Shown in pieces: positions 9,888 through 43,612 of a stretch of DNA of 64,000 bases (the stretch's first letter is position 1; each line of letters starts with the position of its first letter). Origin of the DNA: a virus. The translations under genes were made by a program, and so were the position numbers. The notes beneath the pieces were generated by a model. It was given only the letters and a program-made list of their open reading frames with translations, was not told where the DNA came from and did not search any database. The stretch spans positions 95,492-159,491 of the IMG/VR virus record IMGVR_UViG_3300023174_006137. One strand, 5' to 3'.

Positions 9888-11471
9888 TTAATTTTTATAA
9901 CTATCTTTTAAAGAAACTGTTTTTATAAAACTTCCATCTAAATCTTTGGTATAATAACCATTTCTTACAAATTGTGCAGCTTTACCAACTTCACAATTAT
10001 CAATATTTAATTCACTATAAATTATAGTTTCATGTATTACATCATTCTTTATTTCACAATTATTATCTAAAAATAAATCTTCATACTCCTTAACCATAAT
10101 TTCTTTATTATATAACGCAGAAACCCAGTGAATTGTTCCTTTTACTTTTCTATCTGACTTGCCAGATTTTGTATCTACATCAATAGTACATCTTATTTCA
10201 ATTATATTACCAATGCTATCTTTGATGATTTCATTTGCTTTTATAATATAAGCACCTTTTAATCTAACTTCGCCACCTAATTTTAAACGATAATATTTCT
10301 TATCGGCTTCTTCTCTAAAATCTTCATTTTCAATATAGATTTCTTTTGTAAAAATAACTTCTCTTTTACCATCATTTGGATTTTCAGGATTATTTTCAAT
10401 TTCACAAATTTCAGAACCTTCATAATTCGTTAAAACAACCTTAATAGGATTGAAAATGCACATATATCGATATGCTATTTTATTTAAATGATTCCTTAAA
10501 CATTCTTCTAATAATTTATAATCAATTACAGATTCTCTTTTAGTATAACCAATGATTTCACAGAAATTTTTAATAGATTCTGGAGTATAGCCTCTTCTTT
10601 TTAACCCAGATAATGTTAATAATCTTGGATCGTTTAATGTATACCCTTCTTCAATCAAAGACTTAAACTTCCTTTTACTCATTAAATGATTAACAACATT
10701 CAATCTAGCAAATTCGGTTTCTTCTGGTAAATTATTTTCTAAATCTAAATTATTTAATATCCAATTATAAAGAGGACGATGTAATTCAAATTCCAAAGTG
10801 CATAAAGAATCTGTTATTCCTTCTATGTAATCTGAAATAGGATGAGCAAAATCATACATAGGATAAATACACCATTTATTACCAGTATTATGATGTTCTT
10901 CTTTAATTATTCTATATATGATAGGATCTCTCATGCACATTATCGGACTTGACATATCAATTTTCAATCTCAAAGTGCAATGACTTTCTCCATAGATACC
11001 ATTTTTCATATTTTCAAATCTATATAAATTATCCTCAATACTTCTATTTCTATAGATAGAATCTATACCTGGTTTCACTAAATCTCCTTTATTATTGGCT
11101 ATTTCTTCGGAAGTTGAATCATCAACATAAGCTAACCCTTTATTTATTAATTTAACAGTACAATTATAAATATAATCAAAATAATTGGATGTATATTCTA
11201 TTTTGGAAGGGTTAAAGCCTAACCATTTAATATCTGCTAAAATTGCATCAATATATTCGGATTTTTCTGCACAAGGATTTGTGTCATCAAATCTTAAATT
11301 ACATGAGCCATTATATTTTTCCGCTAAACCAAAATTTAAACACATCGATTTTGCATGACCGAGATGTAAAATAAAATTGGGTTCCGGTGGAAAACGCAAT
11401 ACTGGATTGATTCCATTATTTACTTTTTCTAATATTTTTTCTTCTATAAAATTCATAATTTTTAATACCAT
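9888..11471 (-). CDS. glnS: Glutaminyl-tRNA synthetase
   Basis: RFPPEPN, HLGH, LRFDDTNP, YPMYDFAHP, SLCTLEF, MSKRK, KVKGTIHWVS; lies directly downstream of three tRNA-Gln. Confidence 0.95.
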   Translation of the reverse strand: MVLKIMNFIEEKILEKVNNGINPVLRFPPEPNFILHLGHAKSMCLNFGLAEKYNGSCNLRFDDTNPCAEKSEYIDAILADIKWLGFNPSKIEYTSNYFDYIYNCTVKLINKGLAYVDDSTSEEIANNKGDLVKPGIDSIYRNRSIEDNLYRFENMKNGIYGESHCTLRLKIDMSSPIMCMRDPIIYRIIKEEHHNTGNKWCIYPMYDFAHPISDYIEGITDSLCTLEFELHRPLYNWILNNLDLENNLPEETEFARLNVVNHLMSKRKFKSLIEEGYTLNDPRLLTLSGLKRRGYTPESIKNFCEIIGYTKRESVIDYKLLEECLRNHLNKIAYRYMCIFNPIKVVLTNYEGSEICEIENNPENPNDGKREVIFTKEIYIENEDFREEADKKYYRLKLGGEVRLKGAYIIKANEIIKDSIGNIIEIRCTIDVDTKSGKSDRKVKGTIHWVSALYNKEIMVKEYEDLFLDNNCEIKNDVIHETIIYSELNIDNCEVGKAAQFVRNGYYTKDLDGSFIKTVSLKDSYKN

Positions 11472-11475
11472 TTTG

Positions 11476-11546
11476 TAATCCCATACTGGAACGATCAGTA
11501 TTCTTCAGGGTCAAAACCTGACGCATCACCTTAATGCTTTGGGATT
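11476..11546 (-). tRNA. tRNA-Gln(UUG)
   Basis: Cloverleaf; TCAGG-TT TTG AC-CCTGA; variant T-loop ATCGTTC. Confidence 0.75.
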
Positions 11547-11553
11547 ATATTTG

Positions 11554-11625
11554 TAGTCGGACTAGGAGTCAAACCCAGTCTACGAAGGCCAAATCTTCGT
11601 GTGCGCATCGGTACACTATCCAACT
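11554..11625 (-). tRNA. tRNA-Gln(UUG)
   Basis: CGAAG-AT TTG GC-CTTCG; T-arm CTGGG TTTGACT CCTAG. Confidence 0.75.
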
Positions 11626-11631
11626 ATGTAG

Positions 11632-11714
11632 TTGCCAAGACAGGACTCGAACCTGTATTTACTTCTCGTCCTCCGCTTTCAAAGAGCGGGATGCTACCAT
11701 TACACCACTTGGCA
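11632..11714 (-). tRNA. tRNA-Gln(UUG), long variable region
   Basis: CCGCT-CT TTG AA-AGCGG; canonical GGTTCGAGTCC. Confidence 0.85.
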
Positions 11715-11716
11715 AT

Positions 11717-11752
11717 AAAAAAACCGTTCAATCAAATCAGATTGAACGGTTT
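11717..11752 (-). terminator. Attenuator terminator upstream of tRNA-Gln x3/glnS
   Basis: AAACCGTTCAATC-TGATTT-GATTGAACGG-T7. Confidence 0.85.
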
Positions 11753-11773
11753 AGACAATAAAATCTCACACCA

Positions 11774-11821
11774 TCAATCTGGTTTAAATAATTGTTGTTG
11801 TTGAGAAGTTAAAGTTTTCAT
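11774..11821 (-). promoter_or_regulatory. Leader peptide MKTLTSQQQQLFKPD (Gln-sensing attenuator)
   Basis: Four tandem CAA codons; 3' CAGATTGA is complementary to terminator arm TCAATCTG. Confidence 0.85.
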
Positions 11822-12700
11822 TTTTTTATAATAATTTATAAATTTTTCTATTTCAGTTTTTATATATTCTTTTCCTGCTTCGTTATTTATTGATTGCCAT
11901 TTTATTCTATAAATATTAAAATGTTTTAATAAATTTTTATCTCTTTCATTATCATGTTCAACTCTATATTCATGTTGTTTACCATCTATTTCTAAATCAA
12001 TATTTCCTTCTTTAATATAGAAATCTAAAAAATAATTTCCATTTCCTTCTATATTATATTCTTTTTTTATTATAGTTTTATTAGGCTCATATTTTATGCC
12101 ATTGTTTTCTAATACCATTTTGAAAAACTTTTCTGGATAACTTTCAATATTTCTTGATTGCCAACCTTTATGTGTTCCATTTTTTATTCTTTCTTTAACT
12201 GAATCTCTTAATTTATTTTTATATTCCTCGCTTGTAAATTGACACTTTTTACTACAATATTTTCGATTAATATTTTTTCCAGTATATGTTTTTTTACAAT
12301 TGGGACATTCTTTTATGTATTCCTCTTCATTATATTTTTTATTCCACGGAATATTATTTTTTAATGTATTAGATATTTTTTTACATCTTTCCTCATATTT
12401 TTCTTTATCAAAATTAGTATTATTTTTACCATGTTGATAATAAGAATTTGAACATGACGATGAACATGTTTTCTTACCATTTTCTGTTGTTTCAAATTCG
12501 TTAAAACAAATAGGACAAATAAGTTTAATTTTTTGGTATTTTCTATTTTTGTTTTTATTTTCAAAAATAGATTTATTAAATCCATTTTGTTCTAAAACTT
12601 CTGCTGCCTTTTTATTGCTTCGTCCATTAGAATAACCATATAATTTTATGGCTAAGTCATTAATGGAAAAACTTTCATTTATAATTTTAATGATATCCAT
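11774..12700 (-). CDS. Putative homing endonuclease (Zn fingers plus DUF559/Vsr-like PD-(D/E)xK domain), in frame with the Gln leader peptide
   Basis: CPIC..CS..C repeats, SYPE, Y.LDF, EIDGKQH, D..RD..L; true start MDIIKII after a TATATA motif. Confidence 0.7.
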   Translation of the reverse strand: MDIIKIINESFSINDLAIKLYGYSNGRSNKKAAEVLEQNGFNKSIFENKNKNRKYQKIKLICPICFNEFETTENGKKTCSSSCSNSYYQHGKNNTNFDKEKYEERCKKISNTLKNNIPWNKKYNEEEYIKECPNCKKTYTGKNINRKYCSKKCQFTSEEYKNKLRDSVKERIKNGTHKGWQSRNIESYPEKFFKMVLENNGIKYEPNKTIIKKEYNIEGNGNYFLDFYIKEGNIDLEIDGKQHEYRVEHDNERDKNLLKHFNIYRIKWQSINNEAGKEYIKTEIEKFINYYKKMKTLTSQQQQLFKPD

Positions 12701-12741
12701 AAGATATATATTAAAATTGTCGGAGAAAGTTTTTCCGAACC

Positions 12742-12820
12742 TGGTCGAGAAGGTGAGATTCGAACTCACGAGTTGTCTTGGTCCCAAACCAAGCCGGGTA
12801 CCTGACTCCCGAACTTCTCG
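12742..12820 (-). tRNA. tRNA-Pro(UGG), CCA encoded
   Basis: C1-G72; CTTGG-TT TGG GA-CCAAG. Confidence 0.85.
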
Positions 12821-12826
12821 TTTTTG

Positions 12827-12900
12827 CGGTCTGTACCGGGTACGATCCGGCAACCTTCCCCGTGACAGGGGGATATTGTATCCATTTCTACTAACAGACC
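12827..12900 (-). tRNA. tRNA-Asp(GUC)
   Basis: TCCCC-CT GTC AC-GGGGA; G73; T-loop ATCGTAC. Confidence 0.85.
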
Positions 12901-12908
12901 ATTTTTTG

Positions 12909-12986
12909 CAGTGACGACGGGACTCGAACCCGCAAACCTCCCGATAGACAGTCGGGCATTCTGACCTAAAATTGAACTACGCCACT
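12909..12986 (-). tRNA. tRNA-Asp(GUC)
   Basis: CCCGA-CT GTC TA-TCGGG; G73. Confidence 0.9.
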
Positions 12987-12992
12987 ATTTCG

Positions 12993-13077
12993 TCTGGGTG
13001 ACAGGGCTCGAACCTGCATAAGATGTTAATCATTCTCCTGTCCAAGAGGAGTCGGCTTCCATTGCCTTCACACCCAG
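12993..13077 (-). tRNA. tRNA-Pro(UGG), long variable region
   Basis: C1-G72, A73; CTCCT-CT TGG AC-AGGAG. Confidence 0.8.
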
Positions 13078-13082
13078 AAATT

Positions 13083-13116
13083 AAAAAAACCTATTAGCTT
13101 TTGACTAACAGGTTTT
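13083..13116 (-). terminator. Attenuator terminator of the Pro/Asp/Gln tRNA operon
   Basis: AAAACCTGTTAG-TCAAAAG-CTAATAGG-T7. Confidence 0.85.
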
Positions 13117-13140
13117 AAATAATACAATTTAAAAAATCGT

Positions 13141-13230
13141 TTATATAAACACATAGTTAGTCCACTCCTTATCAGGATCCTGATCCGGTTGTTGTTGTGG
13201 AACTACTTGTATGTTTATATTGTTTTTCAT
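13141..13230 (-). promoter_or_regulatory. Leader peptide MKNNINIQVVPQQQPDQDPDKEWTNYVFI (Pro/Gln/Asp attenuator)
   Basis: 10 consecutive P/Q/D codons; GACTAAC is complementary to terminator GTTAGTC. Confidence 0.88.
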
Positions 13231-13291
13231 TTTATTATAGTATATATTGTTTTTAAAAAATGCTTTTTTGCTATTGTTTAATTTTGTAGTG

Positions 13292-13322
13292 CAAAGATAC
13301 ATAAAAGTTTGAAATCAGCAAA
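13292..13322 (-). promoter_or_regulatory. Bacteroidota sigma70-type promoter of tRNA operon 1
   Basis: -33 TTTG ... -7 TATCTTTG. Confidence 0.75.
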
Positions 13323-13376
13323 AATTTTTTTTTTAATTTTTACATATTAATTTGCATAATATAATATATAGTAAAT

Positions 13377-18099: not shown

Positions 18100-18105
18100 A
18101 TTTTG

Positions 18106-18191
18106 TACCGCTAGCAGGACTCGAACCTGCACTATCTTTACAGAAAACGGATTATGAGTCCGTCACAATTACCACATCTGCTCATAGCGGC
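18106..18191 (-). tRNA. tRNA-Met/Ile2(CAU), long variable region
   Basis: ACGGA-CT CAT AA-TCCGT; cognate leader has internal ATG codons, favouring Met. Confidence 0.75.
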
Positions 18192-18197
18192 ATATTT

Positions 18198-18476
18198 TTA
18201 TACTCTTTTACTTCTCCATTTAATAAACTTTTTCACATCAGGATGTTCTAAAAGTTTTTCCTTTGTATTATATGTTAAGCCCATTTCTTTTTCAGTTATG
18301 AACCGATGTATTTGCCCATGACAATAAAATTTACATATCCAAATACCATGATTTTTCAAATAATCTTTATCATAATTCTTTTTGAAGAACTTATTTGAAT
18401 GCAAAGTCCTTGGAATTAAATGATGAAAATTTAAATAATCATTTGTTGAGCCACACAATTCACATTTATCTATCAT
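18198..18476 (-). CDS. Small HNH-type nuclease-like protein
   Basis: CELCG..L.FHHLIP...C..CH.QIH. Confidence 0.7.
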   Translation of the reverse strand: MIDKCELCGSTNDYLNFHHLIPRTLHSNKFFKKNYDKDYLKNHGIWICKFYCHGQIHRFITEKEMGLTYNTKEKLLEHPDVKKFIKWRSKRV

Positions 18477-18694: not shown

Positions 18695-18699
18695 AATCG

Positions 18700-18772
18700 T
18701 AGCTCTGATGGGAGTCGAACCCACACATTTCCGAGTTTGAATCGGTTGCCTCGCCAGTTGGGCTACAGAGCC
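18700..18772 (-). tRNA. tRNA-Leu(CAA), short variable loop
   Basis: CCGA-TT CAA AC-TCGG; A73; no extra arm. Confidence 0.75.
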
Positions 18773-18999: not shown

Positions 19000-19068
19000 T
19001 TACATAAGAATCCCGTCCAATGTTTCCATTAGATTAAGCAAATTCATATTTAGATTCCTATTTCTCAT
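19000..19068 (-). promoter_or_regulatory. Leader peptide MRNRNLNMNLLNLMETLDGILM (Leu/Met/Arg attenuator)
   Basis: Codons AGG, CTA, ATG, TTG, CTT, CTA, ATG; GACGGGATT is complementary to terminator AATCCCGTC. Confidence 0.88.
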
Positions 19069-31379: not shown

Positions 31380-31485
31380 GAGTCAAAGCAGGAATCGAAC
31401 CTGCGATTGCTTTACCATACAGAGTGCCATTAGCCGTTAATCTCAACCTTTGGAGGTGCTTATGTTGCCACTACACTATTTGACT
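31380..31485 (-). ncRNA. Aberrant tRNA-like RNA (expanded centre, no clear anticodon stem)
   Basis: 7-bp acceptor AGTCAAA/TTTGACT, D-arm GTGT/ACAT, T-arm GCAGG TTCGATT CCTGC. Confidence 0.55.
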
Positions 31486-40811: not shown

Positions 40812-40818
40812 ATTTTAG

Positions 40819-41053
40819 TATTCAGAACGGGATTCGAACCCGCAAAGATTTCATAAATTATAACTTGGAAACCTGCTTCCTGAGTGTTTCCCAGTGCAAT
40901 CTGTTAACCTTGTGTTATAAACCCTCCACCCATTGGTCTTACAGCGGTTATTCACAACCATTCTTTGAATGCCTTTGGTAGTTAGTTAAAATCCCTCATT
41001 TTATGAGTATCCTTAGTGTTTTGGGACTGTTTTTCCTATTAAACTATCTGAAT
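40819..41053 (-). ncRNA. 235-nt tRNA-framed structured RNA
   Basis: Perfect acceptor ATTCAGA/TCTGAAT-A, D-arm GTTT/AAAC, T-arm GCGGG TTCGAAT CCCGT enclosing ~180 nt of multi-stem sequence. Confidence 0.65.
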
Positions 41054-41861: not shown

Positions 41862-41952
41862 ATAAGTATATATTTATTTAAAAATATCATAAATATGCAA
41901 GCGTTCTATCCAATCCTTTAAATTATAATATAGATTATTTGTGAGTTCGTTG

Positions 41953-42025
41953 TCCGCCTGCCGGGAATCGAACCCGGCCCCATAGTTTAAAAGACTATTG
42001 CCTACAACCAGTTTGCTACAAGCGG
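41953..42025 (-). tRNA. tRNA-Lys(UUU)
   Basis: ATAGT-CT TTT AA-ACTAT. Confidence 0.85.
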
Positions 42026-42034
42026 TTAAACTTG

Positions 42035-42109
42035 TGTCCCCAGTAGGATTCGAACCTACAACCCGTTGGTTAAAAGCCAACTACTCTAAGCCAATTGAGC
42101 TATGAGGAC
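42035..42109 (-). tRNA. tRNA-Lys(UUU)
   Basis: GTTGG-CT TTT AA-CCAAC. Confidence 0.92.
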
Positions 42110-42196
42110 TAATTTTGTTAAGCACTCACTACTAATTGGTGCTTAACTAACCTGTTTCTGTTTTCGTTTTATTTGTTTCATACAATAATTTTTTTG

Positions 42197-43515: not shown

Positions 43516-43521
43516 ATTTAG

Positions 43522-43612
43522 GGCGATATGTGGGATTCAAACCCACGGTGTTTGATACAATCTCATTCAGGGTCACAGCCTGATTCCTTCGTTCACTCGG
43601 ACCAATACCGCC
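43522..43612 (-). tRNA. tRNA-His(GUG), long variable region, G-1 encoded
   Basis: TCAGG-CT GTG AC-CCTGA; G-1:C73. Confidence 0.78.

Follow-up and report, generated by a model that had tools for sequence, protein, structure and literature searches.

Two putative leader-peptide attenuators in series before tRNA genes and glnS of a Lak-like megaphage

The locus and its features

The DNA analysed here (the window, 64,000 nucleotides) is the last 64 kb of a 159-kb virus fragment from IMG/VR, with a completeness estimate of 22% and a G+C content of 26%. Its closest DNA relatives are uncultured huge phages (635-735 kb) and Prevotella Lak megaphages, and we assign it to a Lak-like gut megaphage of Bacteroidota. 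In the interval 9888-13322, read on the minus strand, lies a row of tRNA genes ending in glnS, the gene of glutaminyl-tRNA synthetase (GlnRS). It contains two short open reading frames (ORFs), leader 1 and leader 2, each followed by an intrinsic terminator (T1 and T2) directly before tRNA genes (Table 1). We propose that they form two ribosome-mediated attenuators in series, gate 1 responding to Pro, Asp or Gln codons and gate 2 to Gln codons only.

Such a nested arrangement had been suggested from the letters of the window (the sequence-only reading), and its stated elements were all recovered at the positions given. Leader 1, with its Pro, Asp and Gln codons, lies where that reading had placed it, on the minus strand; Pro and Asp tRNA genes do follow directly, and there are four of them, not two. 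The leader with four CAA codons and a terminator of its own was confirmed, a T-run hairpin lying between leader 2 and tRNA-Gln, and three tRNA-Gln(UUG) genes precede GlnRS at 11475-11714, the second called by ARAGORN only. Leader 2 also stood as an element, being kept in ten relatives; the earlier description had overlooked that in the window it is the in-frame tail of a 308-aa ORF. GlnRS had been said to start a few nucleotides after the last tRNA. This is correct for the first ATG of the frame, 3 nt after the tRNA, and not for the start conserved in relatives, which lies 18 nt after it at position 11456 and is most likely the glnS start.

The synthetase scored 584.9 bits against the equivalog model TIGR00440 (cut-off 425.8), and PF00749, PF03950 and PF20974, covering the class I catalytic domain and the two anticodon-binding domains, were all matched. 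Both terminator stems (hairpins at 13086-13116 and 11721-11752) are 13 bp long and followed by 7 T, with hairpin energies of -14.0 (T1) and -18.4 kcal/mol (T2). Matches to the Bacteroidota promoter consensus TTTG-N17-23-TAnnTTTG are enriched in the window (21, 18 of them on the minus strand, versus 8.1 +/- 2.9 expected), so that the host polymerase is the likely reader. No full match was found between 13292 and glnS in a search that covers this consensus only, and neither promoter motif nor terminator was found between the last tRNA-Gln and the glnS start. The sequence-only reading had named an independent glnS promoter as the finding that would contradict it; none of the host type turned up between gate 1 and glnS. 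The locus combines cognate-codon ORFs, intrinsic terminators, in silico pairing that depends on the position of the ribosome, and a consensus-type promoter only upstream.

Table 1. Features of the locus and sites of the gene-start motif in the window
Feature	Position	Strand	Basis or remark
Bacteroidota-type promoter TTTG, 19 nt, TATCTTTG	13292..13322	-	Only full match between 13322 and glnS
Leader 1, 29 codons and stop	13141..13230	-	ORF, codon counts, homologous leaders
Leader 1 run Pro-Gln-Gln-Gln-Pro-Asp-Gln-Asp-Pro-Asp	13171-13200	-	Proposed regulatory codons
Gate 1 antiterminator 5' strand, core GACTAAC	13146..13163	-	Inside leader 1; folding, relatives
Intrinsic terminator T1, 13-bp stem and T-run	13083..13116	-	End about 6 nt before tRNA-Pro
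tRNA block 1	12742..13077	-	ARAGORN and Rfam
tRNA-Pro(UGG)	12992-13077	-	
tRNA-Asp(GUC)	12909-12986	-	Rfam only, 52.2 bits
tRNA-Asp(GUC)	12826-12900	-	
tRNA-Pro(UGG) no. 2	12742-12820	-	ARAGORN only; Rfam no match at E <= 1
DUF559 endonuclease-like ORF, 308 aa	11774..12700	-	Pfam; reads in frame into leader 2
Gene-start motif TAATATATA-N4-ATG of the endonuclease-like ORF	12698-12713	-	
Leader 2, 15 codons and TGA stop	11774..11821	-	Four CAA at 11792-11803
Gate 2 antiterminator 5' strand, core AGATTGA	11770..11781	-	Last two codons and stop; folding, relatives
Intrinsic terminator T2, 13-bp stem, 6-nt loop, 7 T	11717..11752	-	End 2 nt before tRNA-Gln
tRNA-Gln(UUG) no. 1	11631-11714	-	Rfam 59.3 bits
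tRNA-Gln(UUG) no. 2	11553-11625	-	ARAGORN only; Rfam no match at E <= 1
tRNA-Gln(UUG) no. 3	11475-11546	-	Rfam 42.8 bits
glnS, 522 aa from the start kept in relatives	9888..11456	-	Pfam tRNA-synt_1c 3e-94; TIGR00440
TAATATATA motif sites	12698-12713, 13228-13248, 19080, 20717, 41266	-	
TAATATATA motif sites	8303, 9093, 13364, 15987	+	

Codon content of the leaders

Leader 1 carries 3 Pro, 3 Asp and 5 Gln codons, which together make up 11 of 28 codons, and leader 2 has 4 Gln codons out of 14, all CAA. The share of Gln codons is 18% in leader 1 and 29% in leader 2 versus 3.1% in the long ORFs of the window, an excess of 6- to 9-fold. Nearly every tRNA block of the window has a short ORF and a T-run hairpin on its 5' side. 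Between 9000 and 21500 there are 11 terminator-like sites versus 3.5 +/- 2.0 expected, and four of the five strong ones on the minus strand lie directly 5' of a tRNA block. Eight leader/tRNA-block modules of the window were used for a permutation test, in which each leader was scored against the anticodons of each block under simple wobble rules. The assignment of leaders to tRNA sets found in the window was the single best of 40,320 permutations.

Conservation of gate 2

Relatives were retrieved through GlnRS, together with two annotated records. An ORF of the leader 2 type, with a Gln run and a T-run hairpin directly before tRNA-Gln, was found in ten of them (L002, L003, L004, L005, L008, L010, L011, L027, L035 and L041), which gives 11 modules with the window. 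The ORFs of the relatives have 16-19 codons, 4-7 of them for Gln, and glnS follows tRNA-Gln in all except L041, whose locus ends before any glnS. Among these genomes GlnRS identity is 56-69%. Leader 2 is fused to an upstream ORF in L004, as in the window, and stands free in L002, L003, L005, L008, L010, L011, L027, L035 and L041; it is therefore a real conserved element and not the mere tail of an endonuclease-like protein. L005 retains the core GATTGA in a shifted reading frame, which indicates a constraint on the RNA and not on the peptide.

Codon choice within leader 2 varies. CAG accounts for 6 of the 22 Gln codons in L003, L004, L010 and L041, which also carry tRNA-Gln(CUG), and for 4 of 39 in the other genomes; this is a weak hint that sensor codons are matched to the tRNA at the isoacceptor level.

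Alternative pairings at both gates

The switch was folded in silico on transcripts cut before the 3' arm of the terminator, with a ribosome placed at chosen codons, because full-length equilibrium folds always give the terminator and cannot discriminate between ribosome positions. At gate 2 the core AGATTGA pairs with TCAATCT in the 5' arm and loop of T2. With the ribosome on an early Gln codon, the 5' arm of the T2-type hairpin was sequestered in all 11 leader 2 modules, and with the ribosome on the last Gln codon in 10 of them, L002 being the failure. When the ribosome was placed at the stop codon the antiterminator could not form, and the 5' arm was free in every module but L010.

In the window the gate 2 antiterminator duplex reaches -15.6 kcal/mol versus -6.3 +/- 2.3 for shuffled sequences. 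Across the modules it ranges from -9.6 to -15.6 kcal/mol, with -8.0 in L010, and it was better than the shuffles (at most 2 of 300) in 9 of 11 modules. Pairs were tabulated by an anchored script, without RNAalifold, because MAFFT alignments of the leader 2 region were out of register over the spacer and the hairpin. The 7-bp core was paired in all 10 sequences tabulated, and the pair flanking it is C-G, T-A or G-C across the relatives, with three mismatches.

Leader 1 follows the same plan: its 3' end pairs with the 5' arm of the terminator unless a ribosome occupies the stop codon, and stalling further upstream leaves this pairing possible. GACTAAC or a wobble variant pairs with GTTAGTC in the 5' arm of T1 in eight of the eight loci retrieved through glnS. 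In untranslated full-length folds the sensor-codon region holds the antiterminator strand (z of -5.4 at gate 2 and -6.96 at gate 1), a role taken at gate 1 by the Val/Pro codon region. In cut-transcript folds the antiterminator of most relatives forms also without any ribosome.

Proposed nesting of gate 2 behind gate 1

Leaders homologous to leader 1 were found in the eight loci retrieved through glnS and in 13 more obtained by a DNA pattern. In L002, L003, L008, L011 and L035 a gap of about 40 nt separates leader 2 from the last tRNA of block 1, and no promoter motif was found in the 160 nt before it; in L010 leader 2 follows a block of Arg and other tRNAs, again with no promoter motif before it. 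Leader 1 has 3-5 Gln codons in all genomes whose Gln genes belong to its transcription unit, and one Gln codon in L005, whose Gln module is 1.8 kb distant and has a full promoter of its own.

In sister phages this Pro/Gln/Asp leader stands before tRNA clusters in which Gln, Pro and Asp are mixed and which lack a second gate; these mixed clusters explain the Gln codons of leader 1. A second DNA pattern, built on the T1 hairpin and intended to be unbiased for Gln codons, yielded only one new locus, L052, in which a mixed Gln/Asp/Pro cluster lies behind a leader with four Gln codons. No glnS was found in five mixed-cluster contigs, all of them fragments, which gives this result little weight. L027 retains tRNA-Gln in block 1. 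The simplest history suggested by these comparisons is that a Pro/Gln/Asp attenuator first controlled a Pro/Gln/Asp block and that, in the lineage with glnS, the Gln tRNAs moved next to glnS behind an added Gln-only gate. Leader 1 would have retained its Gln codons because a Gln shortage must still open gate 1.

A probable endonuclease-like insertion

In the window leader 2 forms the last 15 codons, in frame, of the 308-aa ORF, the C-terminal part of which matches PF04480 (DUF559) with 26.8 bits (cut-off 20.6, E 4.9e-6). The ORF has no stop codon of its own. The end of a DUF559 homolog in LR756501 coincides with the start of leader 2 in the window, from which it is evident that the insertion lost, or never had, its own stop codon. 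An endonuclease-like ORF is present at this site in the window and in L004 and absent in L002, L003, L008, L011 and L035, and DNA-level relatives of it occur at other positions in Lak genomes. The ORF is probably a mobile insertion, which we tentatively read as a Vsr-like or homing endonuclease.

Differing inserted ORFs lie in the same tRNA operon of other relatives (L009, 3100-4030; L010, 3410-4337; L005, 1803-2636; L041, after tRNA-Asp), at sites that flank the Gln block on either side or fall inside it. By eye, one of these ORFs has a candidate GIY-YIG-like N-terminus; the 277-aa ORF of L005 gave no significant Pfam match. The inserted ORFs of the relatives are probably mobile endonuclease genes, and the tRNA operons look like hot spots for such insertions.

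Proposed mechanism

The host RNA polymerase would transcribe one unit from the promoter upstream of leader 1, with the two attenuators in series. Gate 1 would be multivalent: slow translation of the Pro, Asp or Gln codons would leave the GACTAAC segment free to pair with the 5' arm of T1, allowing read-through into the Pro, Asp, Asp and Pro tRNAs, while a ribosome reaching the stop codon of leader 1 would cover the segment, so that T1 would form and transcription would end. Gate 2 would see only transcripts that have passed gate 1. There, only slow reading of CAA would leave the segment at the stop codon (AGATTGA and a few bases) free for the 5' arm of T2, and with this arm paired the polymerase would reach the three tRNA-Gln(UUG) genes and glnS. 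The net result would be a negative feedback on decoding capacity, in which a shortage of Pro or Asp raises only the Pro and Asp tRNAs and a shortage of Gln opens both gates and raises tRNA-Gln and its synthetase together. In the window and L004, where leader 2 is fused to the endonuclease-like gene, ribosomes finishing that protein would also read the Gln sensor.

The anatomy of the locus is conserved, its sensor codons match the tRNAs, alternative pairings are available at each gate, and no host-type promoter lies between the gates. We infer from this the stalling of ribosomes, the read-through, the co-transcription of glnS and the physiological signal. The Pro and Asp tRNAs and, behind gate 2, tRNA-Gln and GlnRS are probably made only when their cognate codons are read slowly. 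Conservation, codon statistics and folding make it fairly likely that the two attenuators act in series as described, and the nested logic of the sequence-only reading, with Pro or Asp shortage opening gate 1 and Gln shortage opening both, is supported by comparative sequence and by folding. A wider proposal, which we offer tentatively and hold with less than even confidence, is that of a hierarchical megaphage homeostat of decoding capacity: a multivalent gate is combined with an internal Gln gate for the costlier tRNA-Gln and GlnRS, a mobile endonuclease gene has captured leader 2 as its C-terminus, so that the synthesis of a complete protein serves as the sensor, and the phage could sense and repair the loss of specific host tRNAs, be it through a codon-usage mismatch or through host defences that cleave tRNA.

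Several observations weigh against the serial arrangement. The terminator is always the thermodynamic minimum of the full-length RNA, ribosome masks included, so that a kinetic switch is required, like that of classical attenuators. Covariation support is modest, since the antiterminator cores have only 7-8 bp and most of their positions do not vary. L009 has tRNA-Gln and glnS, which sit behind a different inserted ORF, and no Gln leader was found within the 4.5 kb retrieved. The contrast between the Gln codons of leader 1 and the presence of a separate promoter comes from one genome, L005, and the first DNA pattern required parts of the leader 1 motif (the Asp-Gln-Asp codons), so that the loci it found are not independent for the pairing of leader 1. 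A sigma-70-like sequence, TTGACT-17-TATAAT with 11 of 12 matches, lies at 11544-11572 on the minus strand, at the junction of tRNA-Gln no. 2 and no. 3; Bacteroidota polymerases are not known to use this consensus, and the match within the tRNA-Gln genes is probably due to chance. Finally, the motif TAATATATA at the endonuclease-like gene could be an independent entry of transcription behind gate 1 in this genome.

Alternative explanations

This last point leads to an alternative that we regard as unlikely, though with some substance: in this genome the gates would work in parallel, the endonuclease-like gene bringing its own start (TAATATATA, 4 nt before the ATG) and the Gln module being supplied mainly from there and gated by the Gln leader only. 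The motif lies 4-6 nt before many start codons, including those of the leaders of three other blocks (C, E and I), and 11 nt upstream of leader 1, and it precedes all promoter-proximal leaders; this recurrence at a fixed spacing, as at 12698-12713, is in favour of a start signal. So is its frequency. Motifs of this type precede 12-22% of the long ORFs (ATATATA occurs in 19 of 158 long-ORF upstream regions), which suits an operon start better than a general ribosome-binding signal. Protein genes with the motif rarely carry a host-type promoter as well. Insertion-free relatives moreover lack the motif before their nested leader 2, while in L005 it precedes a leader 2 that has its own promoter. 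However, a translation signal would explain the fixed distance from the ATG just as well, and the motif could be either that or a second, phage-specific kind of promoter for near-leaderless mRNAs. Since no terminator lies between tRNA-Pro and the endonuclease-like gene, read-through from gate 1 would still enter, and at least six insertion-free relatives have no start signal of either kind at the Gln module. Were it a promoter, the Gln leader would continue to control the module, but the arrangement would cease to be strictly two-stage.

It is improbable that gate 2 alone controls the Gln module and that leader 1 carries, as a relic without present function, Gln codons left over from an ancestral mixed Gln/Pro/Asp cluster. 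The mixed clusters behind homologous leaders in sister phages, and the tRNA-Gln kept in block 1 of L027, are what a relic would predict. Against it, 3-5 Gln codons persist in every lineage in which the Gln module lies without a promoter behind gate 1, at GlnRS identities down to 56%, while L005, with its independent Gln module, has a single one; and without a promoter a Gln shortage must open gate 1 before gate 2 gets any transcript.

We consider it very improbable that the mini-ORFs are chance and that the hairpins are constitutive terminators, insulators or processing or stability elements with no sensing involved. Short ORFs are indeed plentiful in AT-rich DNA, and the terminator is stable in every equilibrium fold, but the tRNAs would be silenced if a terminator only 2-6 nt upstream of their block were constitutive and no promoter followed it. 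ORFs, sensor codons and the position of the hairpin relative to the stop codon are conserved in up to 17 modules, and the permutation test (1 in 40,320) also argues against chance. Direct sensing of uncharged tRNA by a T-box-like RNA without a translated leader is scarcely credible. Synthetase genes are often under T-box control, but comparison of 11400-13350 with Rfam gave neither a T-box nor any other riboswitch, at the gathering threshold or at E <= 1. A Stem I would not fit into leaders of this length, and several cognate codons in a row, within an ORF that has a start and a stop codon, are characteristic of attenuation by ribosomes.

Comparison with known systems

Leader-peptide attenuation is known from the textbooks for amino-acid biosynthesis and for a few synthetase genes. 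Multivalent leaders are known from ilvGMEDA (Ile/Val/Leu) and thrL (Thr/Ile), and the pheM leader attenuates the E. coli pheST synthetase operon. Gate 1 resembles ilvGMEDA and thrL in that a short translated leader samples several amino acids and is followed by a terminator and a competing antiterminator over the 3' part of the leader, and in that the untranslated sensor region holds the antiterminator strand. It differs in being phage-encoded, in its targets, which are tRNA genes and not biosynthetic enzymes, and in a terminator that abuts the 5' end of a tRNA. The product itself would restore the quantity sensed, giving a feedback directly on tRNA supply.

Gate 2, being monovalent, is closer to pheM-pheST: its leader, about 15 codons long, repeats codons for a single amino acid, and a synthetase gene is under control. 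Unlike there, cognate tRNA genes lie between attenuator and synthetase and would be co-induced with it, the gate lacks a separate promoter and is preceded by another attenuator, and in the window the leader is fused to a 308-aa protein. With trpL and hisL the gates share sensor codons, an antiterminator strand and the 5' and 3' arms of a terminator, as well as termination being favoured by a ribosome at the stop codon; the sensor region that holds the antiterminator strand is the equivalent of the trp 1:2 pairing. The antiterminator core is much shorter here (7-12 bp) and mostly forms without a ribosome in cut folds. As in tandem T-boxes and riboswitches, two serial decisions on termination are taken on one transcript, an arrangement that gives a sharper or AND-like response, whereas here the gates differ in specificity and have genes between them, which makes the layout hierarchical and not a tandem repeat.

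Full-text literature searches found no published case of tRNA genes under leader-peptide attenuation. The E. coli tRNA-Phe genes pheV and pheU were considered as a precedent with Phe-rich leaders and rejected: in K-12 about 45 nt separate promoter-like boxes from the tRNA, with no leader ORF. What is new are the targets (tRNA genes and a phage synthetase) and the hierarchical arrangement of two gates; the mechanism itself is known. If the proposal is true, phage tRNA genes would be regulated by demand and would not be constitutive patches for codon usage. The phage would gauge how fast ribosomes read particular codons and top up those tRNAs and, for Gln, the charging enzyme too. This is directly relevant to the reasons for which tRNA arrays and synthetases are found in large phages, and to how such phages could withstand tRNA-depleting host defences. 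The two-gate layout would be a natural and compact hierarchical logic made from ribosomes and RNA folding alone.

Other features of the window

Genetic code 11 fits the contig, in which long ORFs cover 88%. Recoding of TAG or TGA was rejected, since little coverage is gained when the stop codon is read as sense, and no suppressor tRNA was found across the 159-kb contig. ARAGORN called 39 tRNA genes in the window and Rfam a few more, all on the minus strand and in blocks. Several of them are long (11631-11714, 12992-13077, 31380-31485, 40818-41053 and 43521-43611), measuring 84-106 nt or more; the long genes have variable-region or intron-like inserts, and some copies are too diverged for Rfam.

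Another tRNA operon is split by a 92-aa ORF (18198-18476, minus strand), which lies between tRNA-Leu(CAA) at 18699-18772 and tRNA-Met at 18105-18191. This ORF, with Leu tRNAs on one side and Met/Arg tRNAs on the other, gave no significant Pfam match. A second gate is absent between the Leu block and tRNA-Met/Arg(CCU), and among the codons of the Leu-block leader (19000-19068) are AGG and ATG, which match the tRNA-Arg(CCU) and tRNA-Met behind the 92-aa ORF. In the His/Trp/Phe/Ser operon, whose own leader has Lys codons too, a 12-codon ORF with four AAA codons (42143-42181, minus strand) precedes two tRNA-Lys genes (41952-42109). This AAA-rich ORF, which is followed by a hairpin without a T-run, may be a second nested gate.

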